Shown: piece after piece, positions 1 to 14,366 of the stretch
Numbering within the stretch: the first letter of the stretch is position 1
Layout of the letters: each line of letters opens with the position of its first letter
Source: Kiritimatiellia bacterium
Lineage (GTDB): Bacteria > Verrucomicrobiota > Kiritimatiellia > RFP12 > UBA1067
Direction of reading: 5' to 3'
Length of the DNA: 64,000 nt
NCBI GenBank assembly: GCA_028686345.1
Contig: JAQUCE010000002.1
Location: 42,735-106,734, forward strand
Made by a program: the position numbers and the translations under genes
Notes under the pieces: generated by a model
What the model saw: only the letters and a program-made list of their open reading frames with translations
Told to the model about the DNA's origin: nothing
Database searches by the model: none

Positions 1-1201
1 CGCCAATCTGCCAGCCATCCATAACCACGAGCGAATTTCGGACAGCTTTGTCATCGCTCGCCCCCAGAATCCCCATGCACAGCGCTCCCACCGAGGTCAA
101 ACCATGCGTTCCGCTCTTTGAGATATAGCCAAAGCCTCCGTTATCACCCGCGTTGCTTTTAAAGCCTTTGACTGCCAGCTTGGCAGCCCTATCCAGCCCC
201 TCCACTTTGAGGCCCGCCAGTTTAGCCGCCTTGAGCGCCTGGGCGCACCAACCCATGTAAGAGGTGTCATCCCGGTATTTTCCTGTTGCCGAATCGATAC
301 CCGGCTCCATCTTATAGGTCCAGCCGCCGGTCGGATGCTGCCCTTTGATAATCGGAAGCAGCGCCAGCTCAGCCGACTCTTTGACATTGGGATTCCGCGT
401 CATGCCATAGGCTTCGCACATCGCATAGGTTGCGATCGGGTGCGAGTAGTAATGCTGATCCTGATTGGGATAAACTCCGGTTGTCCGATCCTGTCCTGCC
501 ATCAAAAACTCAATGGCGCGCTGAACCGTGTCGCCGAACTCCTCGGATTTGCCTGGCAGCTCGTTGTGCGCCAGGAATGTTAGAATCGCCAGCCCAGTCA
601 TGGCTGACTTATTTTTGTTCCAGCTTCCATCAGCAACCTGCGTCTTTTTCAGCCAGCGCAGCGCCTTGAGGACCGCGTCTTCAGTGTCTGTTTGGCGCCG
701 CGCGCCAACGCCGTCGCCGCGCCCGTCACCCAAACCTGAGGTCAAGTCCGTAAAGGTCGGGCCCACCTTAAAGCCCGCTAACACAACAATACTCTGGTTG
801 TCTAAAACCCTCTGGGGTGGCGGTTCAACATCCTCAAGCGCAGGGTTGAGATCAAGATTTCCAATAAAAGTCGCCTCTGGCTGGGCAACTTCTGAAGGAT
901 CACTTTTCTCGGATTTGGGTGGTTCAGTTAAGGTCTTCGGCTTCTCCTCTGGAATCCATCGCACGACCGTTGTGCTTTGTTCCTTTGGCAGCGAGCCACT
1001 CAGCATGAACAAGAGCAGTAGGGCCAGCAGCGGAAAGAAGAGCGCGCTCGCTGGCGCTGAGAGGCGCTGCCCTTCAATCAGTGCCTCTTTATACTCTTTG
1101 GAGTCTTTTGGCTGCCGGATGCCGGTGATCATCTTTTTCATGCGGCGCAAGAGCGAATCGCTCTGGTATCGCTCAGCAATCTCTTTAAGATTAGTATTCA
1201 T
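1..1201 (-). CDS. TonB-topology membrane-anchored protein with a C-terminal prenyltransferase/squalene-oxidase (QW-motif) alpha/alpha-toroid repeat domain. The C-terminal end lies beyond window coordinate 1. Paralog of 4613..6196.
   Basis: Manual minus-strand translation from ATG at 1201..1199 (AAGGTGG RBS upstream) gives MNTNLKEIAERYQSDSLLRRMKKMITG..., open to position 1. It has a single TM helix (ALFFPLLALLLLFMLSG), an acidic/Pro-rich linker, and QW motifs LRWLKKTQVADGSW and IIKGQHPTGGWTY. There is strong nucleotide similarity to the 5130-5400 region of the paralog. It is absent from the ORF track because no stop codon falls inside the window. Confidence 0.6.
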   Translation of the reverse strand, partial: MNTNLKEIAERYQSDSLLRRMKKMITGIRQPKDSKEYKEALIEGQRLSAPASALFFPLLALLLLFMLSGSLPKEQSTTVVRWIPEEKPKTLTEPPKSEKSDPSEVAQPEATFIGNLDLNPALEDVEPPPQRVLDNQSIVVLAGFKVGPTFTDLTSGLGDGRGDGVGARRQTDTEDAVLKALRWLKKTQVADGSWNKNKSAMTGLAILTFLAHNELPGKSEEFGDTVQRAIEFLMAGQDRTTGVYPNQDQHYYSHPIATYAMCEAYGMTRNPNVKESAELALLPIIKGQHPTGGWTYKMEPGIDSATGKYRDDTSYMGWCAQALKAAKLAGLKVEGLDRAAKLAVKGFKSNAGDNGGFGYISKSGTHGLTSVGALCMGILGASDDKAVRNSLVVMDGWQIG

Positions 1202-1221
1202 TTCAAACCACCTTTCATTGT

Positions 1222-1620
1222 TTATAAACTGAAAATCGACAGATTTGTCATACCATGTTTGCTGCAGATATCCAGTGCCTGGATCAGCAAAGCATGCGCA
1301 GAATCAGCGGTGCACTTGATCGTGACTGAAGCACTTTTGCTTAAAAGGGAGTACTGCTCCATCCTGCGATCCAGCTCCGCGTTACTCATCGCCCGTCCAT
1401 TAAAGGCAAACCCTTGTGGTGAGAGGGTGACCTCAATCAGATCAACTCTCGTAGCATTAGTCTCCGGAGAAGCGGGCCGAGCAGCTGTCAGTTTGGATAA
1501 AATATCATCCTGTCTGATAGCGACCAAAAAAAAGATTAATAGCTGAAACACAACATCAATCATAGGTGTCATGTCTAAACAAGGGGCCGACCCCTTGTCG
1601 CTTTTACTGTAACGTGTCAT
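1222..1620 (-). CDS. exbD: ExbD/TolR family biopolymer transport protein
   Basis: 132 aa with the N-terminal signature LDMTPMIDVVFQLLIFFLV (ExbD TM segment) and a periplasmic domain. It sits immediately upstream of the QW-repeat TonB-like gene. Confidence 0.85.
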   Translation of the reverse strand: MTRYSKSDKGSAPCLDMTPMIDVVFQLLIFFLVAIRQDDILSKLTAARPASPETNATRVDLIEVTLSPQGFAFNGRAMSNAELDRRMEQYSLLSKSASVTIKCTADSAHALLIQALDICSKHGMTNLSIFSL

Positions 1621-1740
1621 CTCGATCTCCTTTTAGTTATGCCAGTCAATCTACTATGGATCGAAATTAATATATACTCTCCCTGATTTGAGAACACTTT
1701 ATCAAAAAAAATGAGCTTTGTAAATAATTAAAAACTAAAG

Positions 1741-1917
1741 CTGCCAAAAGAGTTTGTGTGATGGCCGCGAGGTCGTCGCCTGGCTGCGAACAGTGCCGAC
1801 GAGGACATCAGCACTCTACGAACGACCTTGCAATGTAAACGTACACTTTGTCGCAAGCTTTGTCGTAAACTTTGTTGGAGTGGAATGAACGCGCCACGTT
1901 GTTTTTGAGGTGAAAAT
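1741..1917 (+). repeat. Dispersed intergenic repeat family 4 copy (related copies at 12700-12945, 14599-14880, 40449-40620 reverse-complemented, plus fragments at 36200-36290, 36660-36720, 47940-48000, 48500-48600)
   Basis: Shared blocks seen by eye, e.g. ctttgtcgcaagctttgtcgtaaactttgttggagtggaatgaacgcg...cgttgtttttgaggtgaaaa and caatcgtcggtcaacatcgtcgcacag. Confidence 0.6.
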
Positions 1918-2110
1918 GTTTTCTGCAGGCAAGATGCTTGCACTACTCCATTATCACTTTTACGGTAACGTCTCAATAACACGCTTTGGAGCAGCCTTCC
2001 TCCTCCGCCAAGGCTACGGCGCGACAAGAAAGGCTGGACAACAAACCTTATGCAGCAGCCGTTTGTTGTTCACGCTTCAGCGGGCTCTTTGTTCTCTGAC
2101 TGGTTATTGA
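1916..2110 (+). repeat. Structured ~170-nt dispersed repeat family 2 copy (candidate small RNA or MITE). Other copies are at 19640-19830 (reverse strand), 40726-40890 and 44690-44870.
   Basis: Conserved core: gcaagcaagatgcttgcactactccattatc...ggagcagccttccgtcttcgcgcttcg.agctacgccggacacggaaaggctggacaacaaaccttacg..gcagccgtttgttg. It contains nested inverted repeats: gcaagca/tgcttgc, cagccttccgt/acggaaaggctg, caacaaac/gtttgttg. Confidence 0.6.
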
Positions 2111-2235
2111 AAAACTACCTTCGCGAGTAAAGAGGTCGGACAAGCAACGTAGGTCTGATTTCGAATCGGACATCTCCGGTTGTAAACCGGAGCTACAGAA
2201 GATCGGCATACTGCAACAGGTATGTGAAAAGCGCG

Positions 2236-2360
2236 TCCTAGGGTGTAGGGTTGCTTCTCAGAAGCAATTAGCGGATGCCAGCTGGTTGTTCGCCAAAGGT
2301 GCGCCAAAGGATTTCATGATCTTTGTTTGGTTCATCCGTCTTCAGGCTTCACAAAAGCTA
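2236..2360 (+). repeat. Dispersed repeat family 3 copy (related copies at 12380-12560 and 36420-36600 reverse-complemented; fragments at 48460-48500 and 55830-55880)
   Basis: Shared string gtagggttgcttctcagaagcaattagcggatgcc.g.tggttgttcgccaaagg...atctttgtttgg.tcatccgtcttc. Confidence 0.55.
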
Positions 2361-2376
2361 CGCCCCTTATGCGTCC

Positions 2377-3051
2377 TCACACCCCAACCAGCAAGCCCTC
2401 TTGGATCTCCAGAATCCGGTCGCACAGTGCCGCGCTCTGCATGGAGTGGGTGACCATAATCAGCGCCGAGCCATTGACGCTGGAGAGTTCAAAGAGCAGA
2501 TCCATCACCTGCGAGCCGGTTTTGCTATCCAGATTGCCGGTCGGCTCATCGGCCAGCACCAGCGCCGGGTTGTTGATCAGTGCCCGCGCCAACGCGACGC
2601 GCTGTTGCTCACCGCCTGAGAGTTCCATTGGCATATGACTAACACGATCGCTCAGTCCAACACGCGCCAGCAGCTCCAGTGCGCGCGCGCGCATCTCGGA
2701 GCGAGTGATTTTGAGAACTCCGGTCATGGCGGGCAGCATTACATTCTCGGTCACATCCATTTCCGGCAGAAGGTGGTATGACTGAAAAACAAAACCGATC
2801 CGGGCGGCTCGCACCGCCGTTCTTTTACGCCGCGAGATATTATACAGCGGGATCCCGTCAATCAGCACCTCGCCGGAATCAGGGCGATCCAAGCCGCCCA
2901 GCACATGCAGCAGGGTGCTTTTGCCGGCACCGCTGCGTCCGACAACTGCGACGCGCTCGCCCTCTCTAACTGCTATCCCAGCACCCTTCAGCACACTGAC
3001 TTGCTGATGGGGTAGAGTATAGGTTTTAAATAAATTTTTCGCTTCCAGCAT
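2377..3051 (-). CDS. lolD: Lipoprotein-releasing system ATP-binding protein (LolD-like ABC ATPase)
   Basis: Walker A GRSGAGKST, ABC signature LSGGEQQRVALARAL, Walker B LVLADEPTGNLD. It is paired with an FtsX/MacB-type permease. The start was chosen at MLEAKNLFKTY rather than the upstream ORF-track Met. Confidence 0.75.
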   Translation of the reverse strand: MLEAKNLFKTYTLPHQQVSVLKGAGIAVREGERVAVVGRSGAGKSTLLHVLGGLDRPDSGEVLIDGIPLYNISRRKRTAVRAARIGFVFQSYHLLPEMDVTENVMLPAMTGVLKITRSEMRARALELLARVGLSDRVSHMPMELSGGEQQRVALARALINNPALVLADEPTGNLDSKTGSQVMDLLFELSSVNGSALIMVTHSMQSAALCDRILEIQEGLLVGV

Positions 3052-3109
3052 TGATTGCCTCTTTCCACGGCAGCGGCCCACGGCTCATCCGCCTGACATT
3101 CCCGCAACT

Positions 3110-4336
3110 CTACTCCTTACGCAGCGCAACAACAGGATCCATGCGCGCGGCTCTCCAGGCGGGCAGGAAACTGGCGACCGTGCAGAACATGATCACCGAC
3201 ATCGCCACATTCACCACCTCAGAGGGGATGATCCGCCAGGGGATGGCATTCAGCCCATAGATCGCCTTGGGAAAGACCTCCACTCCCAGCATACCCAGCC
3301 CATTCACCATGGACTGCAAGTTGTACAAAATCAGGAAGGCCGCGACGATCCCCAGCAAGGTTCCGATCAGACACTGGATCCAGCCGTAAATCACAAAGGC
3401 GCCCATGACCTGGCGCGAAGAGAAACCCAGTGCCTTGAGCAGGCCGATCTCATCGGTTTTCTGCACTGTCAGCACAATCAAGGTGTTGGTGACACAGAAA
3501 ATAGCAACGACCGTGATAAACATCAGCAGAATCACCATCATATTTTTCTCAACCGCCAAAGCATTGAAAATCTGGCGGTCGATCTCCTGCCAGGTCTGGA
3601 CTTGAAAATTGGGTGTGATATCCTCAACCCGTCCCACAACCTTGTTGAAAAACTCAAAATTGGCGGGTTGTTCGGTCTTGAGGTGGATGGAATAGACCCC
3701 TGAGCTCATACCCATCAGGTCGCGCGTCACGGCCAGCGAGGTGATAATGTAACCAGAGTCAAAGTCACGCTGCCCTGACTCGAAGATCCCTTTGACAATC
3801 AAACGGTCGGGAAAGTAGACCTCATCCGTGGAAACCAGATTCATAGGCGAGTAGACGAGCAGATCGTCGCCAACGTCCACCCCAAGTTCCTGTGCCAGAT
3901 CAGTGCCCAGTACCACGGCGTCACCGGTCACATCAAACTCACCCGCGCGCATGTGCTCCAGTTGCATAATATTTTTCGCGCGCACCGGATCCACTCCGAT
4001 CAGCACTGGGGCCACCACGCGCCGGTGATTTTCCACCAGCACCCTGGTCTCCAGTGACGGTGAGGCGGCTTTGACCCCCTCCACCAGCTCCAGCCGGCGG
4101 CAGAGGGCCTCCTCATCTTGGATGACCTTGCCCGCGAACGCACGGATGATGATATGGGGTTTGAAATCCAGGATCTTCTCCTGCCACATGTCGCCAAAAC
4201 CGGTCATCACTGCGCGCACAATAATGATAATGGCCACACCCAGCACAACACCGAGTACCGAGATCAGCGAGACTACCGATGTGACAGTGCGCTTGGGTTT
4301 CAAGTATTTCAGCGCCAAAAAAAGCGAAAAAAGCAT
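3110..4336 (-). CDS. LolC/LolE family lipoprotein-release ABC permease (FtsX-like with MacB periplasmic domain)
   Basis: 408 aa with N-terminal TM1, a large periplasmic domain, then 3 C-terminal TM helices typical of FtsX/LolCE. It is adjacent to the LolD-like ATPase. Confidence 0.75.
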   Translation of the reverse strand: MLFSLFLALKYLKPKRTVTSVVSLISVLGVVLGVAIIIIVRAVMTGFGDMWQEKILDFKPHIIIRAFAGKVIQDEEALCRRLELVEGVKAASPSLETRVLVENHRRVVAPVLIGVDPVRAKNIMQLEHMRAGEFDVTGDAVVLGTDLAQELGVDVGDDLLVYSPMNLVSTDEVYFPDRLIVKGIFESGQRDFDSGYIITSLAVTRDLMGMSSGVYSIHLKTEQPANFEFFNKVVGRVEDITPNFQVQTWQEIDRQIFNALAVEKNMMVILLMFITVVAIFCVTNTLIVLTVQKTDEIGLLKALGFSSRQVMGAFVIYGWIQCLIGTLLGIVAAFLILYNLQSMVNGLGMLGVEVFPKAIYGLNAIPWRIIPSEVVNVAMSVIMFCTVASFLPAWRAARMDPVVALRKE

Positions 4337-4420
4337 ATAAATTCTCAGTAGCGTCCCATAATCGCTTAAGCGGCTAGAAAAAACTATTAATTGTTCTTTC
4401 CCAAAAGTTGTTTATTGTGG

Positions 4421-4590
4421 CATCATTGCGGATATACTTCGCAATCATCCACCGCATAGCGGCGGATATACTTTACAATCATCCACCGCATAGCGGCGGA
4501 TATACTTTGCAATCATCCACCGCATAGCGGCGGATATACTTTGCAATCATCCACCGCATAGCGGCGGATATACTGTGCGTGGCTCTTAAA
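4421..4590. repeat. Tandem array of a 34-bp unit ATCCACCGCATAGCGGCGGATATACTTTGCAATC (4 full copies plus partials). Each unit holds the hairpin core CCGC-ATA-GCGG.
   Basis: The period-34 repeat is read directly from the sequence and is contiguous, with no unique spacers. The same 26-bp core recurs as inverted pairs at 14893-14961 and, diverged, at 51301-51375. Confidence 0.8.
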
Positions 4591-4612
4591 GGCCGAAGCA
4601 CATGCGTCCGTA

Positions 4613-6196
4613 TTACAGATTCCCGACATCAACCTCAATATCGCCGGTGTCGGTTGAGGTAGCCTCGATCTCCGCTTCAACCTGGACCGCTTCGCGGCTG
4701 GTGGTTGGCAGGTTGCGGTAGTATACCATCAATTGAAGCGCTACCAGACAGGTGTCCATCACCGGACGGTCGGTGTGCGCGTCAACGTTTTCCCACCACC
4801 CAATATCCTGATCTTTGCCGTTCATATCTTTGATCGCGTTTTTTGTAATCTTTTGGGCTTTGATATAAACCGGCTTCATCTCGGCGTTCCAATTGGCCCA
4901 GCGCTTACCGCCAGCATGAAATTTGGCTTGCGTTGCGTAGTAAAAATAGTACTGCGGGCTTCCGCCGACCTTATTCTCCTTATCAAACTCTCCGATACTC
5001 CACCCATCCATCAGATCCTGTGATTTGCGCACTGTGGTGTCGCTGCCAGCTCCCAGCAGCTGCAAACACAGCACACCCACGGCGGTCAATCCACCGCTGC
5101 CAGGCGAGGTATAACCGAACCCGCCATTCACAGCTGCATTGGCCTTAAAACCCTTAACCGAGTCCCGCATCGACTTGTCCAGCCCGTCAACATCGAGCCG
5201 CGCCAGTTTGCCTGCTTTAAGCGCCTGGGCACACCATCCCATATAAGAGGTGTCATCACGGTATTTTCCGCTCTCGGGGTCGACACCGGGGAAGAGTTTG
5301 TAGGTCCAGCCGCCAGTTGGGTGCTGTCCTTTGATAATCTGCTCCAGCGACTTTTCGGCGGCATACTTAACATTCGGATTCAGGGTCATGCCGTAGGCCT
5401 CGCACAATGCGTATGAGGCAATGGGGTGATCATAGTTGTTACCGCCGCCTGGCAGCAAACCGTTGTCGCGCTGTACCTTCATCAGATACTCCAGAGCCTT
5501 GCGCACAGTTTCGCCAAACTCCGGCGAGTCACCGGGTTTCTCTCCGTGAGCTAAGAAGGTCAGCACTCCCAGGCCGGTCATGGCGACCTTATTCTTGCTC
5601 CAGCTTCCATCTGCGTTCTGATTTTTCTTGAGCCAGCGCAGTGCCCGCATCACCGCCTCTTCGGTCTGTTTATCGCCGCCAAAACGGGCCAGTGAGGCGC
5701 CACGGGTGCCGGTATTACGTATATCGCCATAGATATTTTTAAGAATCACGGGACTTTTCACATTCATGACAGTGTCAAACTCCTGAGGCTGGGGGCTCAT
5801 GGGAGTGTCCTGCACATTCTCGACGCTCACATTCGGGGTGTCAACAGGCACGTCAATCTCGATCTGCTCCATATCTTCAGGCGGTTTCTCCAGGACTTCA
5901 ACGTCCTCCAGCTCCTGCATCTCCTCAGCCTCCATGATCTGCGTCTCAATAATCCGGTCATCGGTGACCGAAGCATTCGACAACACAACCAGCAACAGAA
6001 CCGAGAGCAGCGGCAACAGAACAGCTGAAATCGGGGCGGAGAGGCGCTGAATTTCAATCATCGCCACTTTATAAGCTCTGGAGTCACGCGGCGCTTTTAA
6101 GCCGGTGAAGAGCTTTTTCATCCGCTTGATGTAGGACTCATTGCCATACATCTCGGCGATCTCTGCGAGATTCGCATCTACCTCATTGAAATCCAT
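4613..6196 (-). CDS. TonB-topology membrane-anchored protein with a C-terminal prenyltransferase/squalene-oxidase (QW-motif) alpha/alpha-toroid repeat domain
   Basis: 527 aa with a ~50-aa cytoplasmic N-terminus, a single TM (ISAVLLPLLSVLLLVVLS), an acidic/Pro-rich linker (EEMQELEDVEVLEKPPEDMEQIEIDVPVDTPNV...PQPQEF), then QW motifs (LRWLKKNQNADGSW, IIKGQHPTGGWTY, MKVQRDNGLL). RBS AAGGGTGG lies before the ATG at 6196. Confidence 0.6.
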   Translation of the reverse strand: MDFNEVDANLAEIAEMYGNESYIKRMKKLFTGLKAPRDSRAYKVAMIEIQRLSAPISAVLLPLLSVLLLVVLSNASVTDDRIIETQIMEAEEMQELEDVEVLEKPPEDMEQIEIDVPVDTPNVSVENVQDTPMSPQPQEFDTVMNVKSPVILKNIYGDIRNTGTRGASLARFGGDKQTEEAVMRALRWLKKNQNADGSWSKNKVAMTGLGVLTFLAHGEKPGDSPEFGETVRKALEYLMKVQRDNGLLPGGGNNYDHPIASYALCEAYGMTLNPNVKYAAEKSLEQIIKGQHPTGGWTYKLFPGVDPESGKYRDDTSYMGWCAQALKAGKLARLDVDGLDKSMRDSVKGFKANAAVNGGFGYTSPGSGGLTAVGVLCLQLLGAGSDTTVRKSQDLMDGWSIGEFDKENKVGGSPQYYFYYATQAKFHAGGKRWANWNAEMKPVYIKAQKITKNAIKDMNGKDQDIGWWENVDAHTDRPVMDTCLVALQLMVYYRNLPTTSREAVQVEAEIEATSTDTGDIEVDVGNL

Positions 6197-6216
6197 AGTG
6201 TTCCACCCTTCTTTTG

Positions 6217-6621
6217 TCAGATACTAAAGATCGACAGGTTGGTCATGCCATTCTTGTTGCAGATATCCAACGACTGCACCAGAAAGGCATGCGGTGAGTC
6301 GGCGGTGCATTTAATGACAATCATCGCCGTCTTGCTCAGGTCGGCGTAACGTTTGATCCTGCGGTCAAGCTCCACTAAAGAGACAGGCCGTCCATTCAAA
6401 ATAAACCCCTGGGGCGCGACCTGGATTGTGATCAATTCGGGCTGATTCTCTTTTCGCGCTCTTGGATCCGCAGCTGGACGAGCTGCGGAAAGTTTTGACA
6501 GGATGTCCTCCTGTTTAATTGTCACAATAAAGAAAATCAACAACTGAAAGACAACATCAATCATTGGTGTCATGTCCAGTTTCGGGGTCTCTCCTTTATT
6601 TTGTTTTCTTACATAAGCCAT
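6217..6621 (-). CDS. exbD: ExbD/TolR family biopolymer transport protein
   Basis: 134 aa, LDMTPMIDVVFQLLIFFIV signature. Confidence 0.85.
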   Translation of the reverse strand: MAYVRKQNKGETPKLDMTPMIDVVFQLLIFFIVTIKQEDILSKLSAARPAADPRARKENQPELITIQVAPQGFILNGRPVSLVELDRRIKRYADLSKTAMIVIKCTADSPHAFLVQSLDICNKNGMTNLSIFSI

Positions 6622-6641
6622 CTAAAGCCTCCTGGCATTTA

Positions 6642-7139
6642 TCATTTTTTCCCTGCTTTATGCTCTTGAATAGCCACGAACGACAGCTTCCAAATTCCCA
6701 CGCCCGTGCAGATATCCATAACCTCGCGCACCTTTTCGTGCGCAGTTTTGCGGTCTGCGCGAATCAACACGGGAAACTCATTTCCGTTGCGGTTGACGCG
6801 GGCTTTTAGAATCTGTTGCAGTTGATATTTCGACAGCGTCGCATTATGGATTGAGATGCGCCCACCCCGCGCCAGCTCAATTTCGAGCGTGGTTGGCGGC
6901 ATATTATCCTGTGTCAGCGTCACGCCATGCTTGCCATCCTCCAGCATGATCTCCTCATTGCGGTCAGATGTCATTTTAAGCGTGACCACAAAGAAAATAA
7001 TCAACTGGAACACAACGTCAATCATCGGTGTCATATCCACATCGCACGTCTCGGTTGAGCTATGTCTTCTTTTGTGCATGGTTCGGTTCCTTTGTCTGCT
7101 ATAGGCAGTTAAATTCGCACTTCGCAGTCGGGCAGCCAC
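6642..7139 (-). CDS. exbD: ExbD/TolR family biopolymer transport protein (second ExbD of the operon). The true start may be the internal Met near 7079.
   Basis: VDMTPMIDVVFQLIIFFVVTLK signature. An AAGGAACC RBS precedes the internal MHKRR start. Confidence 0.8.
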   Translation of the reverse strand: MAARLRSANLTAYSRQRNRTMHKRRHSSTETCDVDMTPMIDVVFQLIIFFVVTLKMTSDRNEEIMLEDGKHGVTLTQDNMPPTTLEIELARGGRISIHNATLSKYQLQQILKARVNRNGNEFPVLIRADRKTAHEKVREVMDICTGVGIWKLSFVAIQEHKAGKK

Positions 7140-7237
7140 AAATGACAGCCCGACTGCCGCGCTTTAAAACATGGCAATCCTATGATCAATAGCCAACTGA
7201 AGCCCGGTTAAAAGGGCGGCAGCTGCCACGGACGGAT

Positions 7238-8029
7238 TTAGTCGCTAACAATCTCGACGTTGCGCAAATCCTTAATCAATTCCATGGTCATCGCCTGCAT
7301 GCGCAAGACCAAACGGTTGGCATTGTTACGGATGGCGTAATAAAAAGTGATTGAGGGAATCGCAATCGCCAGACCGGCGGCGGTAGTCCAGAGCGCCTGC
7401 GAGATGTTCATTGCCAGGGCGCCGACATCGGGGGCGCCTGTGGCCAGGGTGGAGAAACTCATGATCATGCCTTGCACGGTACCCAGCAGCCCCAACATGG
7501 GCGAGAGGTTGGAGCAGACAGAGATCCAGGTCAGACGCTGCATCAGTCGCTCAGTCTCCAGGTCAGCGGCTGCGATGATCGATTCCTGAATAATGTCGAA
7601 GCCCTCTTCCACATGCGAAAAGCCGGCGGTTAGAATATTGGCCAGTGGTCCGGGCTCGGATTCACAGGCTTGCAGGGCTTTCATCACATCACCCTCGGAC
7701 ATGCCCTCTTTCACGCGGTTGATCAGCGTCTCAGGCATGACCTTCTGCGGGCGAATCAAGACTGAACAGTCAACAATAAAGTACACTGCCGCGCCGCCGC
7801 AACCAAACAGAGCTGCCCACAACACCATTCCCAGCCATCCTGAACCCACAATCACAGCCCAGAACCCGGCGGATTTAGGCGCCTGTCTGGCCCCTGCCGC
7901 GCCTCCTTCGGCGACCAATACGCCCTCAGCGGCAGCGGCAGCTGGCGCATCTACATCTTGCGCCATGACCGGCGCACTCCCAAGCATCAACCCTGTGAAC
8001 ACTACTGCTGACAAAATCAGTCTTTTCAT
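7238..8029 (-). CDS. exbB: MotA/TolQ/ExbB proton-channel family protein with an N-terminal signal peptide and a long periplasmic N-terminus
   Basis: C-terminal LSPMLGLLGTVQGMIMSF...ALWTTAAGLAIAIPSITFYYAIRN matches the ExbB/TolQ TM2-TM3 signature. It lies directly upstream of two exbD genes. Confidence 0.85.
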   Translation of the reverse strand: MKRLILSAVVFTGLMLGSAPVMAQDVDAPAAAAAEGVLVAEGGAAGARQAPKSAGFWAVIVGSGWLGMVLWAALFGCGGAAVYFIVDCSVLIRPQKVMPETLINRVKEGMSEGDVMKALQACESEPGPLANILTAGFSHVEEGFDIIQESIIAAADLETERLMQRLTWISVCSNLSPMLGLLGTVQGMIMSFSTLATGAPDVGALAMNISQALWTTAAGLAIAIPSITFYYAIRNNANRLVLRMQAMTMELIKDLRNVEIVSD

Positions 8030-8124
8030 TGTTACCTCTTGTGTTTTTATTACTCGTGTTTTTTAAAGTTAGCTGTTGACTAACAAAACTTTTGTTTATG
8101 CCCCGTCCGGGGCACACCTGCGGT

Positions 8125-8934
8125 TTATTTGAGAGCCCACTCAGAAGAGCTGTACTCCCCTTTCAACTTTGTGCGCATCTGATCAGCGCGCGATGAATGG
8201 CCCAGTTTCTCAAAGCACTTGGCCGCCTTGTACAACGCTTCCGGCTGCGCGGCCTTGATTCCGCTGTAAAGCGTAATCACGCGCAAATAGCCATCACGCA
8301 AAGCCCTGCTGGCGCTCTCATTGGTGTCGCCATCTTTCCTGATCATATCACCACGCATAATCAGTGCAAAAGCGGAAGCGGAACGATCCGCGTTTTTCAC
8401 CGCTTGTGTAATCAGATCGTCCAATCTGGCTGTCCGGTCACCCATTAGCAGCGCTGCCCAGTAGGCGGGTGCCATATCGCCTTGATAGGCAGCCGTTGGA
8501 TCAGCGGCGATCACCCGCTCGCAGACCTTGATTGCATTAGAGGGGTCATTGTCTTTGACATAAGCCTCGGCCAGCAGACGTGTTGCCGGCCTGTCCCAGA
8601 TCAGCATGAAGTAGTCGTTGATAATCTTGTTCAGCACAGGAATGGCGGCAGCGGCGCCCTCGCCGCGCTTAAGGCTCGCTTCAATTGCGGTTAACTCCGC
8701 CGGCTTGGGGATGAGCAGCCGCGCAATCATATCCCGTTCCAGCGTCAGCTCAATATTGCCCGGGCCTGACGCACGAATGCCGTAGGCTTTGTCGCGGCTC
8801 TTCCAGGTAATCTCGCCATCCAGTCTTTTCCCGTCAGTCGTGACAATCGTGCCCTGTATGGCGGCCATCCCGGCGCCTGCTGTTAGCAGCAGGGCTGTCA
8901 AAAGAACTCTTTCAATACTTTTTCTCATACTCAT
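8125..8934 (-). CDS. Hypothetical secreted protein (signal peptide; helical, TPR-like) in the Ton-like operon
   Basis: N-terminal LLTALLLTAGAGMAA signal-like segment. No recognised catalytic motifs. It is operonic with exbB. Confidence 0.45.
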   Translation of the reverse strand: MSMRKSIERVLLTALLLTAGAGMAAIQGTIVTTDGKRLDGEITWKSRDKAYGIRASGPGNIELTLERDMIARLLIPKPAELTAIEASLKRGEGAAAAIPVLNKIINDYFMLIWDRPATRLLAEAYVKDNDPSNAIKVCERVIAADPTAAYQGDMAPAYWAALLMGDRTARLDDLITQAVKNADRSASAFALIMRGDMIRKDGDTNESASRALRDGYLRVITLYSGIKAAQPEALYKAAKCFEKLGHSSRADQMRTKLKGEYSSSEWALK

Positions 8935-8973
8935 TCCTTATTTATTCCTCAAAACTCGTTGCCATCCACTTGC

Positions 8974-11900
8974 CTACTGTCCGATTTTCGCCTGGTTGAG
9001 CCAGTTCTGCATATCAGTTGCATAGCGTCCCTGCGGGAAGAGTTTGAGATATGTTTCGCAATCCTCCACGGCCTGGTCATAGGCTTTATGCTCCAGCAAC
9101 AGGGGGGTGAAGGCAAAGTAGGCCTTCTCCAGATAGGGTGCCAGTATAGCATCACCGGGATCAAACCGGTCGATAATGGTCATAAACGCCACAATCGCGG
9201 TGCCGCGCGTCGCAGCTGCCTGGTCATCCAGCCCCAGCTTTTTCTCAGCCTCCATCTTGCGCACCAGCATGTTGCCGGTGGCCAGATCGATCTCGGCGAT
9301 CTCGGCTTTGGTCTTGCGGTAGCCCCGCACCAGCTTAAGTGAATCAACCGCCTGGTTGAAGAGGTCTTTACGCAGATCGTTGTCCGCCTCACTCCTGCCC
9401 TCTTCACTGGCCGCTTCGGCCAGCAGCATGTGGGCGTCCACCACTTGCACTAACTTCGAAAGCTCGGGATCAGCCACATACGCTGCCAACAGTTGGCGCG
9501 CCTCACGGTATTGCTTCTGGCCAATCAGCGCTTTGGCTTTGCCCAGTTTGGCCTCAGCAATCAAGGCAAACTCCTTAGACTCGTCCAGCACCTTGTTATA
9601 GGCCTCCAAAGCCAGCGCATCCTCCCGTGCCTGCAGCAGGGCGTTACCGGCCGCGTTGTACTGCCCTGGCGTGTATTTGCCTCCTCCGATGAACATCTCG
9701 CGGTATTTGGCCACGCCCTCACCGCGCAGCCCCATTTCAATCAAACTCGCTGCCAGCATTGGAACCGAGTTTTTGGCTTCGTCGGAGTCGGGGTAATTTT
9801 TGCTGAGAGCTTCAAAGGCCTTCTGGGTCTCTTCCTTGTATTGGTTCTGCTTGGCCTCATCCGTGGCGCTGCCCGCAAGGATCGTGTACAACGTGCCGAG
9901 CTGTAACTGAGCTTTAGGCGCGTATTTGCTCTTGGGGAAAATTGCGAGAAACTCCTTAAACGCGGCAGCCGCTTGGTTGCGGAACTCTGCCAGTTTGTCC
10001 TTGGGGTACTGCAGCTGTGAGAGAGCAACGCCTTTGGTGAATGTGGCCAGCTCCCGCATCTGCTGGTTGCGATCGCTCTCCTCGGCGTTCTTCTGATAGG
10101 CCTCCGGATTGGCCAGCATTTTTGCAACTGAATCAAAGCTGCTCGCAGCTTTCTCCAGTAAGCGGGCACCCTGTTGCAGGACCACTTCATCGGTCTCGTT
10201 GGTGGCTGATTTCAAAAGATATGCGCCATATGAGCGCTCAGCATCAGCTAGGCGGAACTTCGCAACCGTCAGGTTATGGCCCGGACGCTCGCCCTTCTGT
10301 AGCTCGTCAATCATAAACTCCAGCGTGCTCAACTCATTGGAGTAGTTCCCTTCAGCCTTGTAAATTTGCGTGATCCGGTTCAAGGCGTCATGATAATAGG
10401 TGGATGACTTGTACTCGGTGATCACTCTGTCGTAGTAGGCTTTAGCGCCAACGTAGTTCTCGGCTTTGAACTCACGCTCCGCAAAGCTCATTACCAACTG
10501 ACTCGCAGCATAGTGCTTGGGATAATCGCGGAAGAACAAGGCGTAAACCTCACGCTTTTTGTCATCGCGGTTATTGTTGCCGTAATAATCCCCGATCTTA
10601 CGCACCTGGTCACCAGCGGCCTTCATCAAATCCTCCTTGGTGGCAAAACGCTCGGAGAGATGCCCCACCACGGTATCAGCCATCAGCTCATCGTCGGCAC
10701 CGCCCTCAATATAGCAGATGGCAAGATTGCCGAGCGCGTTGACCGACTCCATGGACTCCGGAAACTGGTTCAATACGATCAGATACTTCTCTGCCGCCTC
10801 TTTAAACTGATTCTGGCTGAACAAAAGATTGGCGCCGGCAAACTGCATGGAGCGCACCCGCTCCATCTGCTGCGGGGTCACCTGGATGGGGATATCGACA
10901 TTGTAGCGATCTTTGATAATACTGCGGATCTCATTGGAGTGCTCGCCGGCTTCCGCCGCCCACTGGCTCTCAGGAAAGCGGATAAACACATTGATAAAGT
11001 GGTTAAAAGCACCGTTGTTAGCCCGCCGCTTGGTCCTGGCATCGCGCTCTCCCAGAAAGTAGGCCTTGATCAGCTCCTCATCCGGGGCGGGTTTCTGCAT
11101 CTCCGCCTTGGCCTCATTCAGCAGCAGTAACGCCAGCAGATAGCGGCACTCAGGCATTGGGCTCATCCGCAGCCAGCCCCGTGTGCCGTCAGGATCTTCT
11201 TCCAACAGCGAGTCGTGGATGATCTTCAGCTGCGGCATGTAATTTTCCACCAGTGCTTGCGCGCCTTTGATGTCACCACGCAACATCGCAACATGGGCCT
11301 TCATGACAATCGCTTTACCGAACCAGACATCCTGCTTCCAAAGCAGCTTGTCCGCCAGCGCCTCCGCCTCTTTCAGCATCGCTTCCTTGGCGCCCTTGTC
11401 CTTGCTTTCCGCTGAGAGCTTCAACATCAGCTCCGCCATGTCAGCATTCACATTCCGAGCTCGCCCCTCCTCCAGCTTCACGTTGGACAACAGTTTGTAA
11501 GCCTTCAGCGCCTCCGCGTCCTTGCCCAAATAAAGCAGCATCTGCGCATACTTATAAGCCGAGTCCCGATAAAAGGAGTGCATCGCTTCAGAGGGCTTGG
11601 CCACTTTTTTGAAAAACTCCTGGTAGAGCGCATCCGCCTCGGCATAGCGCTGAAAAGCGTAATACGCGTCCGCCATTGCCAGCGTCAACGCCCAGAACTC
11701 AGGGCTGTTCTTGTCAGCCATTGCGTCAATCTGCGCCTTGACCTCATCAAACTTGCCCTGCCATAGCAATCCCTGAAATTCACGCACCTTGAGCTGCGGT
11801 CCAGCTTCGGGATATGCTCTTTTAACCTCAGCAATCACCTGCTCCGCAATGTCCGGCATACGCAGTTGCTGTAGTAACTCTATATATTTGAGTTCCTCTT

Positions 11901-12012
11901 TAAGCTCTGCATCGGTCTCTGACTCCTGTGCCTTTAGCCTAGGAGTAAGGGCTAAGGCAAAGATGGCCGTGACCGATAGCAACAGAAATCTATGAAATCT
12001 TATGTAACTCAT
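8974..12012 (-). CDS. Large secreted tetratricopeptide (TPR) repeat protein, first gene of the Ton-like operon
   Basis: 1012 aa with signal peptide MSYIRFHRFLLLSVTAIFALALTPRLKAQE. Many AxxAxxxYxxA-type TPR-like helical repeats occur throughout (YYAFQRYAEADALYQEF, etc.). Confidence 0.7.
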   Translation of the reverse strand: MSYIRFHRFLLLSVTAIFALALTPRLKAQESETDAELKEELKYIELLQQLRMPDIAEQVIAEVKRAYPEAGPQLKVREFQGLLWQGKFDEVKAQIDAMADKNSPEFWALTLAMADAYYAFQRYAEADALYQEFFKKVAKPSEAMHSFYRDSAYKYAQMLLYLGKDAEALKAYKLLSNVKLEEGRARNVNADMAELMLKLSAESKDKGAKEAMLKEAEALADKLLWKQDVWFGKAIVMKAHVAMLRGDIKGAQALVENYMPQLKIIHDSLLEEDPDGTRGWLRMSPMPECRYLLALLLLNEAKAEMQKPAPDEELIKAYFLGERDARTKRRANNGAFNHFINVFIRFPESQWAAEAGEHSNEIRSIIKDRYNVDIPIQVTPQQMERVRSMQFAGANLLFSQNQFKEAAEKYLIVLNQFPESMESVNALGNLAICYIEGGADDELMADTVVGHLSERFATKEDLMKAAGDQVRKIGDYYGNNNRDDKKREVYALFFRDYPKHYAASQLVMSFAEREFKAENYVGAKAYYDRVITEYKSSTYYHDALNRITQIYKAEGNYSNELSTLEFMIDELQKGERPGHNLTVAKFRLADAERSYGAYLLKSATNETDEVVLQQGARLLEKAASSFDSVAKMLANPEAYQKNAEESDRNQQMRELATFTKGVALSQLQYPKDKLAEFRNQAAAAFKEFLAIFPKSKYAPKAQLQLGTLYTILAGSATDEAKQNQYKEETQKAFEALSKNYPDSDEAKNSVPMLAASLIEMGLRGEGVAKYREMFIGGGKYTPGQYNAAGNALLQAREDALALEAYNKVLDESKEFALIAEAKLGKAKALIGQKQYREARQLLAAYVADPELSKLVQVVDAHMLLAEAASEEGRSEADNDLRKDLFNQAVDSLKLVRGYRKTKAEIAEIDLATGNMLVRKMEAEKKLGLDDQAAATRGTAIVAFMTIIDRFDPGDAILAPYLEKAYFAFTPLLLEHKAYDQAVEDCETYLKLFPQGRYATDMQNWLNQAKIGQ

Positions 12013-12239
12013 ACTGTGCTTTATACTCTAACCGTGGCTTTTGGTCAATTTCAAATCATCACTTTTTTCTAAAAAGTGCATACAAGTGTAGTCAGCCATG
12101 GTATTTTACACCTTAATATAAGCTTACGTGGCATAGCTGCTGCCCCAAGCGCGCCGAAATAGCTGAGGTCAGCGATCTGAGATAGAGGCCGCTGCAAAAA
12201 AAGTGGGCTAACTTAAAGGCCAAAAGCATCGGGTGGCGC

Positions 12240-12950
12240 TCTGCGAGCGATATGAAAGATGGGCCGCCGCTGGTAGAGCGGCATTTTGCAGCAGACCCGT
12301 GAAAGGCTCGCCCCGGGGTGTAGTAGCCGCTCTATGAGCGGCATTTTGCAGCAGACCCGTGAAAGGCGCGCCCCGGGGTGTAGGGTTGCTTCTCAGAAGC
12401 AATTAGCGGATGCCGGGTGGTTGTTCGCCAAAGGATTTCACTATCTTTGTTTGGCTCATCCGTCTTCGTCCCGCAACCCGGCTTCGCCCTCAAGCGCTGC
12501 TGCGTCGTGGGATGGCGGAACTACGACGGACAAGTTCCGCCAACCCTACACGTTTCCACTGTGATGAAGCTTGCATGTCGTACGACAGGCGCGAGTACGC
12601 GAATGCGCGAATGCGCGAGTTAAAGAGATGGAGACTTTTATGCGACGCAACGCAGCTCCGATTTTCAATCGGACATGTCCGGCTGGAAACCGGAGCTACT
12701 GCGGTCGGACATCTCCGGTTTGCGATAGCGGCGGCGACGATGCTGGTTGACAAGCCCGCGCATGACCCCAATCGTCGGTCAACATCGTCGCACAGTATCG
12801 TCGGCCGCAGCGGCAGGGCACGGCCTCCACCGCGCCGCCTGAACGACCTTGCAGCGCAAGCGCAAACTTTGTCGTTAACTTTGTCGGAGTGGAGTGAGGT
12901 TTTTCAAAAACGTGCGTGAAAAACAACGCAGCGCACTCTCCGTCCCCTCT
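12240..12950. repeat. Mosaic repeat block: a 63-bp direct duplication (12268-12392), then a family 3 copy (12380-12560), then a family 4 copy (12700-12945)
   Basis: Direct comparison with the copies at 2236-2360, 36420-36600, 1741-1917 and 14599-14880. ORF-track ORFs inside this block (e.g. 12410..12919) are judged spurious. Confidence 0.6.
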
Positions 12951-13229
12951 GTGCCTCAATGGCTAAACAAAATTCGCGGCAAAGGGCCAAAACTCTCTCA
13001 TATCCACGCTGTTCGTCCACTTTTGCTGTGCCAACCGCTGCGAAAATTACGCAGAATCAGGGTCGTTTAACTCAATTTATCGAGTTTTAGCCGCCGAAAC
13101 TCTGGAATTTCGAACAAAATGCAAAAAAAAACCTTATTTATGAATTTCTGGTTGCAGTAAACCCCGATTTTAGGTAAATTTGATGATGTTGTTAAATCTA
13201 TTTACAGGAATAAATTCAGAGGTATTGAC

Positions 13230-14366
13230 ATGGGTAAAGCATTAAGAATACTTGTAATCATCATTTTGTTACTGAGTGTTGTCTCGTTGGTGTTCGCGCA
13301 TCTGCTTTTTGAAAAGCGAGTGCTGCTAACTGAAAGGAATCGAATTTTCGAAAACGCGGTCGTTAATCTGGCCAAAACAATCGAAAAAGAAGATGCCGCC
13401 GACTCGACTCCACCCAGCGTAGAAAAAGATATCGCCACGGTTACCGACCGTGAACTGGTAAACCCCGAAAAAGAGCCGATGCTCCAAAACTATCCCATCC
13501 AGCTGGAGCAACAGAACTTGCCCACCTTGGATTTGGATAACACCAAGATGCGTCTGCAGCTGCGCAGTTACTATGTCATCGACCCTGTAACCGGCAAATA
13601 TAAGATCGACGAGCTCAGCCAGCTTCCTGCGACAAAAGGTCCAGGCTCAATGGTCGAAGTGCTTGACAATGTCTTTGAGCGCGCCAAGGTCCAGCAGGCC
13701 AAGCTTAACAGCACCCGCGCCGAGCTGGCTAAAATGCGCGATAAGATGACCGCCGCGGTTGAAGATATCAACGCACTCAAAATCGCTGGCCGCGCCGATA
13801 AAAAAGAGATCACCGAAAAGGCCGGGCAGATTGCTTCGCTACAGGGTGAAGTCGCTGATCTGGAAACCAGAGTTGCCCGCCTGACCAATGAGAAGCGTGA
13901 ACTCGCCGCTGAATTGGCTGACAGCCGCAATGAGGTCGAAACCCTTAACGGCGAACTCGTGGCTGTCAAGGAAGACTTGGTCAAAGCGGAAGAGAAAAAT
14001 GCCGATTGGGAAAAACGCTGGAAAGGCTTGAAAAATAATCCGCTGGGCGACCCTGACGCAATTATCGTGACTGCGCTCAGCGCTGGCGACAAAGGCAAAA
14101 TCATTGAAGCCAATGATGAGCTGAAGTTCGCTATCCTTGAGTTTTCCAACGAAGCCATCACTGAGATGCTCGGCCCTGAGCGTGCCAACCAGCTCCCTCA
14201 ACTGGAGATGAATGTGCGCCGCCCTGGACACCAGAGCGCCTCTGGCGAGTTTATCACCCGCATCAAGCTGCGTCAGGTGGTGCGTGGCAAAAATCTGGTT
14301 GTAGCGGATATCCTCAGCGACTGGCAGCAGGCAACCGTGGAAAAAGGCGATGTCGTATTTTTCTAA
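13230..14366 (+). CDS. Hypothetical N-terminally membrane-anchored coiled-coil protein
   Basis: 378 aa with TM ILVIIILLLSVVSLVFAHLLF, then a long heptad-rich region (AELAKMRDKMTAAVEDINALKIAG...LETRVARLTNEKRELAAELADSRNEVETLNGEL). An AT-rich promoter-like region lies at 13100-13229. Confidence 0.55.
   Translation: MGKALRILVIIILLLSVVSLVFAHLLFEKRVLLTERNRIFENAVVNLAKTIEKEDAADSTPPSVEKDIATVTDRELVNPEKEPMLQNYPIQLEQQNLPTLDLDNTKMRLQLRSYYVIDPVTGKYKIDELSQLPATKGPGSMVEVLDNVFERAKVQQAKLNSTRAELAKMRDKMTAAVEDINALKIAGRADKKEITEKAGQIASLQGEVADLETRVARLTNEKRELAAELADSRNEVETLNGELVAVKEDLVKAEEKNADWEKRWKGLKNNPLGDPDAIIVTALSAGDKGKIIEANDELKFAILEFSNEAITEMLGPERANQLPQLEMNVRRPGHQSASGEFITRIKLRQVVRGKNLVVADILSDWQQATVEKGDVVFF

Follow-up and report, generated by a model that had tools for sequence, protein, structure and literature searches.

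TonB conveys the proton energy of the inner membrane to the outer one. It is built of a single N-in helix anchor, a disordered acidic/proline linker of ~100 residues and a globular C-terminal head, its gene immediately follows exbB and exbD, and several paralogues may be found per genome. The two proteins considered here, QW1 and QW2, share all of these traits; unlike TonB, they have no TonB_C domain, their head being modelled as an (alpha/alpha)6 toroid of ~330 residues.

By analogy of design, the closest published counterpart is a group of periplasmic force transducers with a vWA head, known from PVC and other bacteria (Williams-Jones et al. 2025, Mol Biol Evol, PMC12204202). First noted in the Kiritimatiellae isolate Tichowtungia (PMC12204202), they also combine a TM helix (SHLS), a motor box, a ~100-residue linker and a globular head with no relation to TonB. 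However, their head has a vWA fold instead of a toroid, and their loci carry one TPR gene, not two; the words squalene, prenyl and toroid are absent from PMC12204202. The first-pass annotation of our locus could not match it to any described system. While the toroid head is indeed new, the vWA-headed proteins are a published precedent, so the idea is less unprecedented than that annotation held. In our opinion, QW1 and QW2 are probably TonB/TolA-class periplasmic force transducers in which a single (alpha/alpha)6 toroid replaces the usual C-terminal domain.

The QW operon and its conservation

We analysed a 64-kb stretch of Kiritimatiellia DNA (hereafter, the window), where all features given below lie on the minus strand in the order TPR (1012 aa), TPR (269 aa), ExbB/TolQ-like, ExbD, ExbD, QW2, LolE, LolD, ExbD, QW1. 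The first gene of the operon encodes a secreted 1012-aa TPR protein (8974–12012) with a hydrophobic signal-like segment at its N-terminus, matches to Pfam TPR families, and CpoB/YbgF-like and BamD-like repeats; the second secreted TPR protein, of 269 aa (8125–8934), matches Pfam TPR_6 and related families. Next come the ExbB/TolQ-like proton-channel subunit (7238–8029; 263 aa; Pfam MotA_ExbB, 92.7 bits), already recognised in the first-pass annotation, and two heterologous ExbD/TolR subunits, where a single ExbD before QW2 had been implied. ExbD_c (6642–7139; 165 aa; Pfam ExbD, 78.8 bits) is the first of them, and ExbD_b (6217–6621; 134 aa; Pfam ExbD, 75.4 bits) lies directly upstream of the complete QW2 ORF (4613–6196; 527 aa), the product of which matches P0001, a database protein of a Kiritimatiellae MAG, at 100% identity. 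A LolE/LolC-like permease (3110–4336; Pfam MacB_PCD and FtsX) and a LolD-like ABC ATPase (2377–3081; Pfam ABC_tran, 122 bits) adjoin the operon and lie outside its conserved core. The series ends with ExbD_a (1222–1620; 132 aa; Pfam ExbD, 62.7 bits) and its partner, the second paralogue QW1 (1–1201), which is cut by the window edge after residue 400 of 527; the identical database entry P0404 gives the full length of 527 aa.

All three ExbD proteins retain the transmembrane Asp, located in ExbD_c within MTPMIDVVFQL. ExbD_c is only 28–30% identical to the other two, and ExbD_a shares 60% identity with ExbD_b and 28% with ExbD_c. At both ExbD–QW junctions, 20 nt separate the end of ExbD from the start of QW, each with a GGTGG ribosome-binding-like site, and QW1 orthologues from two other genomes (69% and 58% identity) each follow directly after a lone ExbD. 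The ExbD and QW pair has been duplicated as a module. As a separate observation, one of these QW1 orthologues adjoins BamA, Skp and LpxD.

Our synteny sample comprised 86 QW genes from 80 genome loci. Two ExbD genes directly precede QW in 46 of the 86 cases; those where the upstream sequence extends over 6 kb or more were informative for the rest of the operon, and in all of them (29/29) the six-gene core TPR, TPR, ExbB, ExbD, ExbD, QW is complete, with the gene for the 1012-aa TPR protein upstream of the motor genes. The core is also present in a distant lineage, L081, where QW is ~37% identical and the downstream genes are different; the 269-aa TPR gene keeps its position both there and in related loci. 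The link between QW and ExbB/ExbD is thus strongly conserved. The earlier claim that each QW gene is paired with its own ExbD holds for both QW genes of the window; among relatives, however, just 49 of the 77 QW genes with an informative context have an ExbD directly 5' of them, and 23 of the 86 have no ExbD nearby, which counts against reading QW proteins as transducers.

In 21 of 34 loci with an informative context, QW is followed by LolE and LolD. Such an adjacency to genes of envelope biogenesis would suit a Tol-Pal-like system of envelope maintenance, where QW plays the role of TolA and the pmf serves outer-membrane stabilising or constriction, or lipoprotein/lipid trafficking, rather than nutrient import. 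The same may be said of the motor subunits, whose top NCBIfam matches are TolQ (ExbB-like protein, 70 bits) and TolR (ExbD_c), of the 1012-aa TPR protein, matching CpoB/YbgF (tol_pal_ybgF, 75 bits) and BamD-like models, of the BamA, Skp and LpxD genes mentioned above, and of the cultured Kiritimatiellae representative Tichowtungia, which has no recognisable TolA or TonB (PMC12204202). However, every NCBIfam Tol match falls below its cut-off (90.1 bits for tol_pal_ybgF), a TolA C-terminal domain is missing from the QW locus, neither the operon nor the window contains a gene resembling TolB or Pal, and L081 has lost the Lol adjacency while retaining the six-gene core. Moreover, genomes carry several QW paralogues, of which some are tandem copies and others neighbour ECF sigma/anti-sigma pairs, a trait reminiscent of TonB paralogue families and not of Tol. 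We consider a Tol-Pal-like function of the operon unlikely.

Comparison with Ton systems also reveals differences, as the QW core includes two heterologous ExbD and two TPR genes, and no TonB-dependent receptor is found near the QW locus. ORFs of at least 150 aa across the window gave no Pfam matches to TonB_C or TonB-dependent receptors, in agreement with the first-pass annotation, which saw no canonical TonB in the operon. Since a canonical ExbB-ExbD-TonB operon is also present in related genomes, the QW system exists in parallel to TonB and is not its replacement.

The toroid head

Modelled confidently in two AlphaFold runs on QW2 alone, the head (residues 174–500; 4697–5677) is predicted to be an (alpha/alpha)6 toroid of the terpene-cyclase/prenyltransferase superfamily, and Pfam SQHop_cyclase_C matches above its curated cut-off (29.8 versus 26.1 bits). 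Both QW motifs quoted in the first-pass annotation were recovered. A canonical one lies at residues 184–199 (5600–5647), and RALRWLKKNQNADGSW matches the full QW consensus perfectly, as did only 3 of 20,000 protein shuffles. Judging from the Pfam match and the toroid model, the C-terminal domain is no divergent TonB_C.

In databases, QW proteins bear the name 'terpene cyclase/mutase family', and polar and aromatic toroid residues are kept family-wide (LAHGE, YAxxEAY, RxDTS, WxxQAxKAA), for which an enzyme active site could be an equally possible meaning. QW might then be a membrane-tethered periplasmic enzyme, either terpenoid/polyprenol cyclase-like or a glycan-active (alpha/alpha)6 protein, merely co-transcribed with ExbBD and transmitting no force. 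A cyclase is unlikely, since the head has no DxDD motif (the window proteins have YRDD) and family-wide conservation is lacking for D314, the residue in the general-acid position. In comparison with class-II terpene cyclases (squalene-hopene cyclase, oxidosqualene cyclase and the single-domain myxobacterial 8paj/8pak), identity is only 13–17%, the two-domain cyclase architecture gives way to one toroid held by a periplasmic tether, and the genes around QW are those of a proton motor, with no isoprenoid genes found near them. For any such enzyme, the conserved disordered tether of ~100 residues, the post-helix strand and the motor synteny maintained across 37% identity would be hard to explain, and we find this interpretation distinctly improbable.

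Anchor, linker and likeness to TonB

Homologues down to 32–39% identity retain all three parts, namely TM helix, linker and head. An N-terminal hydrophobic helix is present in 129 of the 150 best family representatives, and the median linker length is 106 residues among the 117 representatives where the linker could be delimited. QW1 and QW2 share 51% identity, and only 20% in the linker; each has exactly one strongly hydrophobic 19-mer (QW2 residues 54–72, Kyte-Doolittle 2.66; QW1 residues 53–71, 2.34). Around this core, the membrane anchor region of QW2 comprises residues 56–77 (5966–6031), with the conserved QRLSAP motif just before it; the helix is preceded by 5 K/R within 20 residues and followed by 1, and R51, P55 and P62 are invariant in 82 homologues. 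The acidic periplasmic linker (residues 78–173; 5678–5965) is predicted to be disordered, with pLDDT <50 in both AlphaFold models, and has 25% D+E and 9% Pro over residues 78–165. The 'exact TonB topology' of the first-pass annotation stands as to the one TM helix and the disordered acidic linker; however, this linker is not clearly Pro-rich, and the cytoplasmic N-terminus, helical and ~53 residues long, is not short, contrary to that annotation, and is an extension that TonB does not have.

Among the few conserved stretches of the linker is DDRIIETQIMEAEE (residues 79–92; 5921–5962), a candidate D-box or motor box in which conservation reaches 90% or more at D80, I83, E84, T85 and E89, and whose position agrees with the D-box described in PMC12905483. 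The N-terminus of a sister QW subfamily reads WGPTGSVILH...APEVEVVIMEPDA, and 112 of its 117 members have the TonB-type SxxxH helix motif; the window subfamily lacks this His of the SHLS motif, QW2 having Leu instead. In hhalign comparisons, S, H and the post-helix strand of the sister subfamily were in register with a Kiritimatiellia TonB (E 0.0077), whose genuineness is indicated by its TonB_C score of 74.9 bits, as well as with the TonB of E. coli (E 0.07), the sister motif EVEVVIMEP being aligned with PELEVTAVE and PISVTMVTP, respectively. These pairwise profile tests point to a statistically weak N-terminal similarity to TonB. No Pfam model matched the N-terminal region, and an HMM of the sister N-terminus failed to retrieve the canonical TonB present in the loci. 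We infer that DDRIIETQIMEAEE would be equivalent to the sister motif and D-box-like in function. ExbD_a and ExbD_b hardly differ in their C-terminal strands although QW1 and QW2 have different candidate D-boxes, so there is no co-variation signal.

At its other end, QW2 has a conserved acidic tail (residues 501–527; 4616–4696; ending ...GDIEVDVGNL), which is disordered in the AlphaFold monomer models. Its residues D519 and I520 are conserved, and endings of the 'D-[IV]-x-[IV]-[DE]' type are seen again across subfamilies. This tail may have a role in partner binding.

Possible mechanism and role

Synteny and motifs argue for a physical coupling of QW to the motor and support the earlier suggestion of a pmf-energised periplasm-spanning protein with a non-TonB effector domain. 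Such coupling might also be that of a stator-anchoring or regulatory ExbBD accessory, with the toroid binding peptidoglycan or a periplasmic scaffold and no pull exerted on the outer membrane, given that ExbD/TolR proteins are established to bind peptidoglycan (summarised in PMC12905483), that the co-conserved TPR proteins resemble periplasmic scaffolds and that the monomer models define no target. However, the median linker of the family fits periplasm-spanning proteins and not local anchors, and several paralogues with diverged heads argue for several targets. We think that an accessory of this kind is very improbable.

As a force transducer, QW would dock its N-terminal helix outside the ExbB/TolQ-like pentamer, the pore of which would hold an ExbD heterodimer (ExbD_c and ExbD_b, or ExbD_c and ExbD_a for QW1). 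The conserved post-helix strand would bind the periplasmic ExbD dimer in the manner of the TonB D-box, the disordered acidic linker would cross the periplasm, and proton flow through the motor would lead to a pull on the toroid head, itself holding an outer-envelope partner. As direct interactors of QW, the likeliest candidates are the two secreted TPR proteins conserved together with it, possibly contacted through its acidic tail.

Davey et al. reportedly described, in 2023, a mucin utilisation locus of Akkermansia muciniphila, MUL1 (Amuc_0543-0550). We take it to consist of eight genes, two TPR proteins coming first and ExbB and ExbD homologues next; presumably, this order would match TPR, TPR, ExbB, ExbD, ExbD, QW, LolE, LolD gene for gene, with Amuc_0548 as a possible QW-type protein. 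In this locus, mul1A (Amuc_0544) is a mucin-transport gene required for growth on mucin, and the annotation of Amuc_0546 is that of a biopolymer (ExbD-type) transporter. By this analogy, a link between the QW operon and the mucin-import locus of Akkermansia would be plausible. The most likely role of the QW system would be to supply energy for taking up or handling large glycans at the outer membrane of polysaccharide-degrading PVC bacteria. Overall, a deeply conserved ExbB/ExbD operon with toroid-headed proteins points to a variant of envelope-spanning force transducer that has not been described before.

Gene content of the operon and of the rest of the window

All of the genes of interest in the window lie on the minus strand, and their assignments rest on Pfam and NCBIfam. 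In the 5'->3' order, the operon opens with two TPR proteins of 1012 aa (8974–12012) and 269 aa (8125–8934), followed by an ExbB/TolQ-like protein (7238–8029), ExbD_c, which is the first ExbD of the main operon (6642–7139), ExbD_b (6217–6621) and QW2, a TonB-like protein of 527 aa with a toroid head (4613–6196). Then come a LolE-like permease (3110–4336), a LolD-like ATPase (2377–3081), ExbD_a (1222–1620) and its partner QW1 (1–1201), a paralogue of QW2 that is partial at the window edge and whose full length of 527 aa comes from an identical database entry. QW2 itself is 100% identical to a Kiritimatiellae MAG protein annotated as a "terpene cyclase/mutase family protein". The three ExbD proteins score 62.7, 75.4 and 78.8 bits with the Pfam ExbD model (cut-off 25.4), and all of them carry the transmembrane Asp in MTPMIDVVFQL. 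The first-pass annotation paired each QW protein with an ExbD of its own, and each QW gene is indeed directly preceded by exbD, with 20 nt from the ExbD stop to the QW start and a GGTGG site in between; the main operon, however, has two different ExbD genes. It was also right that no canonical TonB is visible here: neither a TonB_C nor a TonB-dependent-receptor match was found in any ORF of at least 150 aa over the whole 64-kb window.

A gap of about 750 bp (1620–2377), devoid of ORFs with a Pfam match, separates LolD from ExbD_a and probably holds a separate promoter of the ExbD_a–QW1 pair. A promoter-like site lies within it at 1724–1696 (minus strand), such sites being not above chance. Promoter and terminator scans of positions 1–13000 gave nothing above shuffled expectation, and Rfam gave no match over 1–13500, including this gap.

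Several other features of the window deserve a brief comment. The stretch 56237–62149 (plus strand) encodes a tyrosine integrase, a D5_N/primase-helicase and a terminase small subunit, has low GC (0.46–0.49) with a strong positive AT skew, and ends beside tRNA-Met and tRNA-Arg genes (tRNAs at 62739–62909, minus strand); it probably represents an integrated phage or a satellite-like element. A 2964-aa ORF at 27143–36037 (plus strand) joins GT2, glucoamylase-like and GH94 domains in the manner of a cyclic beta-1,2-glucan synthase. On the minus strand, there are a 1584-aa protein with PATR (passenger-associated transport) repeats (19977–24731) and a 1031-aa fusion of fucose pyrophosphorylase and GHMP kinase (16451–19546) that looks like a bifunctional fucokinase/GDP-fucose pyrophosphorylase. 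Also on this strand, genes for a PEGA-domain protein, an FHA/YscD-like protein and a T2SS-F-like protein stand in a row (40921–44546) and may belong to a pilus or to a secretion machinery.

A toroid head on a TonB-like tether

The first-pass annotation assigned the C-terminal domain of the QW proteins to QW-repeat toroids instead of TonB_C, quoting two sequence motifs; both are present, and one is a perfect full QW consensus, a result reached in 3/20,000 shuffles. The Pfam model SQHop_cyclase_C clears its cut-off in the head, over only ~45 residues, and a profile of 82 homologues, searched against the PDB, matched chains of squalene-hopene cyclase (E 5e-8). In the AlphaFold model, residues 174–500 form an all-helical toroid (pLDDT mostly >90) with a single beta hairpin at residues 449–467, and Foldseek retrieved generic toroids alone for the head (E ~1e-5). 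The TonB_C domain (PF03544), which in TonB binds the Ton box by strand addition, was not matched in QW1 or QW2 by Pfam or NCBIfam; the TonB of a related Kiritimatiellia locus, L015, served as a positive control and scored 74.9 bits. The toroid model together with the profile and Foldseek matches therefore places the head in the terpene-cyclase/prenyltransferase toroid superfamily, not in TonB_C.

Class-II terpene cyclases (SHC/OSC) share with the QW proteins the (alpha/alpha)6 toroid with QW motifs. The DxDD general-acid motif is absent from QW1 and QW2 (no D.DD), with YRDDTS in its place, and when 125 family representatives with a median identity of 39% to QW2 are aligned, only RxDTS of this region is kept, the general-acid position being not conserved. 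The cyclase models TIGR01507 and TIGR01787 of NCBIfam reached 23.9 and 30.8 bits, far below their cut-offs of 431 and 323. Taken together, the missing DxDD, the unconserved general acid and these low scores make cyclase activity unlikely. The toroid has many polar and aromatic residues that are kept family-wide, and these would be compatible with a ligand- or partner-binding site. A thioester reading (alpha-2-macroglobulin/C3d-like) of "LCEAYGM" was also considered and was dropped on inspection of the alignment, the Cys-x-x-Gln spacing being absent.

As for the tether, each protein has one strongly hydrophobic segment (residues 54–72 in QW2 and 53–71 in QW1), with five K/R before the QW2 helix and one after it, that is, a single N-terminal transmembrane helix of N-in topology as in TonB. 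The TonB topology proposed in the first-pass annotation thus stands as regards the single helix, but not as regards a "short" cytoplasmic N-terminus, which comprises ~53 residues and is helical. The linker was disordered in two AlphaFold runs (pLDDT <50 at residues 76–173), and the second run, made with a more diverse alignment, still did not order the linker and the tail. It thereby resembles domain II of TonB, which is disordered or proline-rich and spans the periplasm. Described initially as acidic/Pro-rich, the linker is more acidic than proline-rich (25% vs 9% in QW2).

Conserved linker positions are few among 82 close homologues and cluster in three motifs: "QRLSAP" before the helix, DDRIIETQ..EAEE straight after it, and "SPVILKNIYG...RNTGTRG" before the toroid. 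The helix motif SHLS/SxxxH is missing from the window proteins, which have Leu at the His position, and any SxxxH within the first 100 residues occurs in only 10/120 close homologues. It is present in 112/117 members of a sister subfamily, comprising homologues ~37% identical to QW2, the short N-terminus of which reads "DHVWGPTGSVILHILVI...APEVEVVIMEPDA". In the TonB family, a strand 10–15 residues after the helix, the D-box or motor box, binds the ExbD dimer. The post-helix strand of the QW proteins matches it by position: the candidate D-box motif DDRIIETQIMEAEE (residues 79–92 of QW2), a putative binding site for the ExbD dimer, is conserved among close QW2 homologues, and the equivalent stretch of the sister subfamily falls into register when aligned with TonB. 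With hhalign, the N-terminal module of the sister subfamily aligned to the Kiritimatiellia TonB of L015 at 29% identity over 42 columns (E 0.0077), with DH, S, H and the post-helix strand in register; the same register was found with E. coli TonB at E 0.07. The D-box pairs with both ExbD protomers in published structures (PMC12905483, PMC12204202).

Run on the N-terminal modules by themselves, Pfam gave only noise, as the TonB helix is not covered by any of its models. An HMM built from the sister-subfamily N-terminus weakly retrieved other QW N-termini and did not retrieve the canonical TonB proteins in the loci, so that homology of the QW N-terminal module to TonB stays suggestive, not conclusive. 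Co-variation of the candidate D-boxes of QW1 and QW2 with the C-terminal strands of ExbD_a and ExbD_b was also sought and gave no signal, since these strands are nearly identical.

A conserved six-gene core and its variants

A pattern scan with one genome per species yielded 325 confirmed loci, of which the best 80, holding 86 QW genes, were examined. Among these 86 genes, 46 directly follow two ExbD genes, three follow one ExbD gene, five follow another QW gene in tandem, 23 have no ExbD nearby, and nine lie too near a contig end to judge. The exbD–QW pairing noted at first pass thus recurs in 49 of the 77 informative genes of these best 80 loci. ExbB and both TPR genes are present in all of the 29 two-ExbD cases with at least 6 kb of upstream sequence (29/29), so that genetic linkage to exbB and exbD, another feature of TonB, extends from the window to these loci. 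LolE lies downstream of QW in 21/34 informative loci. A distant lineage (QW of 479 aa, ~37% identical) keeps the six-gene core and has MutL downstream, not Lol genes. The conserved unit is therefore TPR, TPR, ExbB, ExbD, ExbD, QW, and the Lol genes are its lineage-specific neighbours.

ExbD_a is 60% identical to ExbD_b and only 28% to ExbD_c, and QW1 orthologues at 69% and 58% identity each follow a lone ExbD with no ExbB nearby. An ExbD_b-type gene and QW therefore constitute a duplicated two-gene module, which persists in other genomes. In one locus, L086 (5282–9338), a QW1 orthologue and its ExbD lie a few kb from BamA, Skp and LpxD, a proximity to outer-membrane biogenesis genes that may be a coincidence. 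Tandem arrays of two to three QW paralogues stand directly after the core motor cluster in L070 (4279–9665), L074 (6826–11857) and L068 (7962–11302). Downstream of some stand-alone QW paralogues, which lack a nearby ExbD (L026, L028, L030, L039–L042, L044, L046 and L051), there are genes for an ECF sigma factor (Sigma70_r2/r4), for a zf-HC2 anti-sigma factor and, in some of those loci, also for an acetolactate decarboxylase; this arrangement recalls TonB-linked trans-envelope signalling. A Lentisphaerales MAG (L075, 118–7046) has a second motor cluster composed of TPR (802 aa), ExbB, ExbD, ExbD, a 149-aa protein with a TonB-type helix (STVIH), an Ala/Pro-rich tail and no head domain, a DUF4159 protein and a NAGPA-like protein, with an ExbD–QW pair just downstream. 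The DUF4159 protein was considered as a third head type and was dropped because it spans the membrane several times and does not resemble TonB.

Canonical TonB does exist elsewhere among the relatives: a standard ExbB-ExbD-TonB operon lies a few kb from the QW cluster in two related loci, directly beyond LolD in the Kiritimatiellia MAG locus L015 (11811–13852, minus strand) and in the equivalent region of L016. Published genome analyses reported TonB-related Pfam domains in Pontiella and, for Kiritimatiella, an outer-membrane energisation complex but not TonB-dependent polysaccharide uptake. Thus, the QW system is parallel to TonB and does not replace it.

A profile search of 1.84 billion representative proteins, with hits counted as clusters at 50% identity, returned 12,715 matches at E<=0.001, 8,249 at 1e-10 and 2,148 at 1e-30, the weakest of which may include unrelated toroid proteins. 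Among the 150 best matches, 129 have an N-terminal hydrophobic helix, and those with a definable linker show a median length of 106 residues with 17% acidic residues and 12.7% Pro. The family occurs chiefly in Kiritimatiellia and in MAGs that carry a Lentisphaerae or Verrucomicrobia label; the named organisms are MAGs of these three groups and one Marinimicrobia MAG. Its members are currently labelled "terpene cyclase/mutase" or "prenyltransferase repeat" proteins. Such labels are misleading, and for this large, mis-annotated and unstudied family a better reading is that of a TonB-like tether on a proton motor, with an alpha/alpha toroid at its end. On the whole, the initial observation is confirmed, and its interpretation as a periplasm-spanning protein energised by the proton motive force is supported.

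Possible mechanism and role

Proton-driven 5:2 motors (ExbBD, TolQR, MotAB, GldLM, ZorAB) are increasingly seen as general power units, the attached "tool" setting what each of them does. We infer that the QW proteins are most likely periplasmic force transducers of the TonB/TolA class with a toroid head. The helix would bind the ExbB pentamer and the strand just past it the heterodimeric ExbD pair; the disordered linker would span the periplasm, and proton flow would pull on whatever the toroid holds, possibly also on the cargo of the acidic C-terminal tail. These tails are conserved (...DIEVDVGNL and ...EITVDYPENL), and acidic C-terminal peptides are often bound by TPR grooves; the strongest candidates for a direct partner of QW are the two secreted TPR proteins.

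A related class of force transducers is already known. With the Kiritimatiellae isolate Tichowtungia as their starting point, Williams-Jones et al. 2025 (PMC12204202) screened the neighbourhood of motor genes in species lacking TolA and TonB and described a class that combines an SHLS helix and a motor box with a linker of ~100 residues and a head of the vWA type. The gene order in the window and in the 29/29 informative loci fits the published description of that class; the von Willebrand A fold, however, is absent from the QW head, which is all-helical apart from one hairpin and gave toroid matches only. The words squalene, prenyl and toroid occur neither in the text of that paper nor in a 2026 review of Ton and Tol motors (PMC12905483), and a literature search for squalene oxidase repeat together with ExbD returned no paper. 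Because an analogous class with another head was published in 2025, the QW system is not categorically new.

As to its role, energising the handling or uptake of large glycans is the most likely one, the main rival being a Tol-like envelope role. On the latter, neither Pfam nor NCBIfam matched the TolA C-terminal domain, tolB or pal in the operon or the window, and the scores of the operon proteins with the TolQ, TolR and CpoB models were all below the cut-offs. Regarding large glycans, Kiritimatiellia, Lentisphaerae and Verrucomicrobia rank among the major degraders of both mucin and sulfated polysaccharides, and, to our knowledge, how large substrates pass the outer membrane in these degraders is not understood.

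The mucin utilisation locus MUL1 of Akkermansia presumably comprises eight genes, Amuc_0543–0550, with two TPR proteins first and with ExbB/ExbD homologues, and in the order that we assume, it would match the eight genes of the window one after another. MUL1 has been described as a mucin import system with Amuc_0544 as mul1A, and Amuc_0546 is annotated as a biopolymer transporter. It is tempting, if rather doubtful, to go further and speculate that the six-gene module of two TPR, ExbB, two ExbD and QW might be a PVC-wide, TonB-receptor-independent energiser of macromolecular glycan uptake that is homologous to MUL1. The toroid head and TPR-scaffolded enzymes would then hold on to polymer chains or to a conduit in the outer membrane and draw these into the periplasm by proton-motive force, with different substrates or signalling pathways (ECF sigma/anti-sigma) for the different QW paralogues.

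In terms of 5:2 motors, QW would be a new tool, namely a TonB-like tether with a toroid end. The minimum gain is a corrected annotation and a second non-TonB head type, after vWA, for periplasmic force transducers. If the link to MUL1 holds, it would provide a concrete, testable mechanism of mucin import in a medically important gut bacterium.
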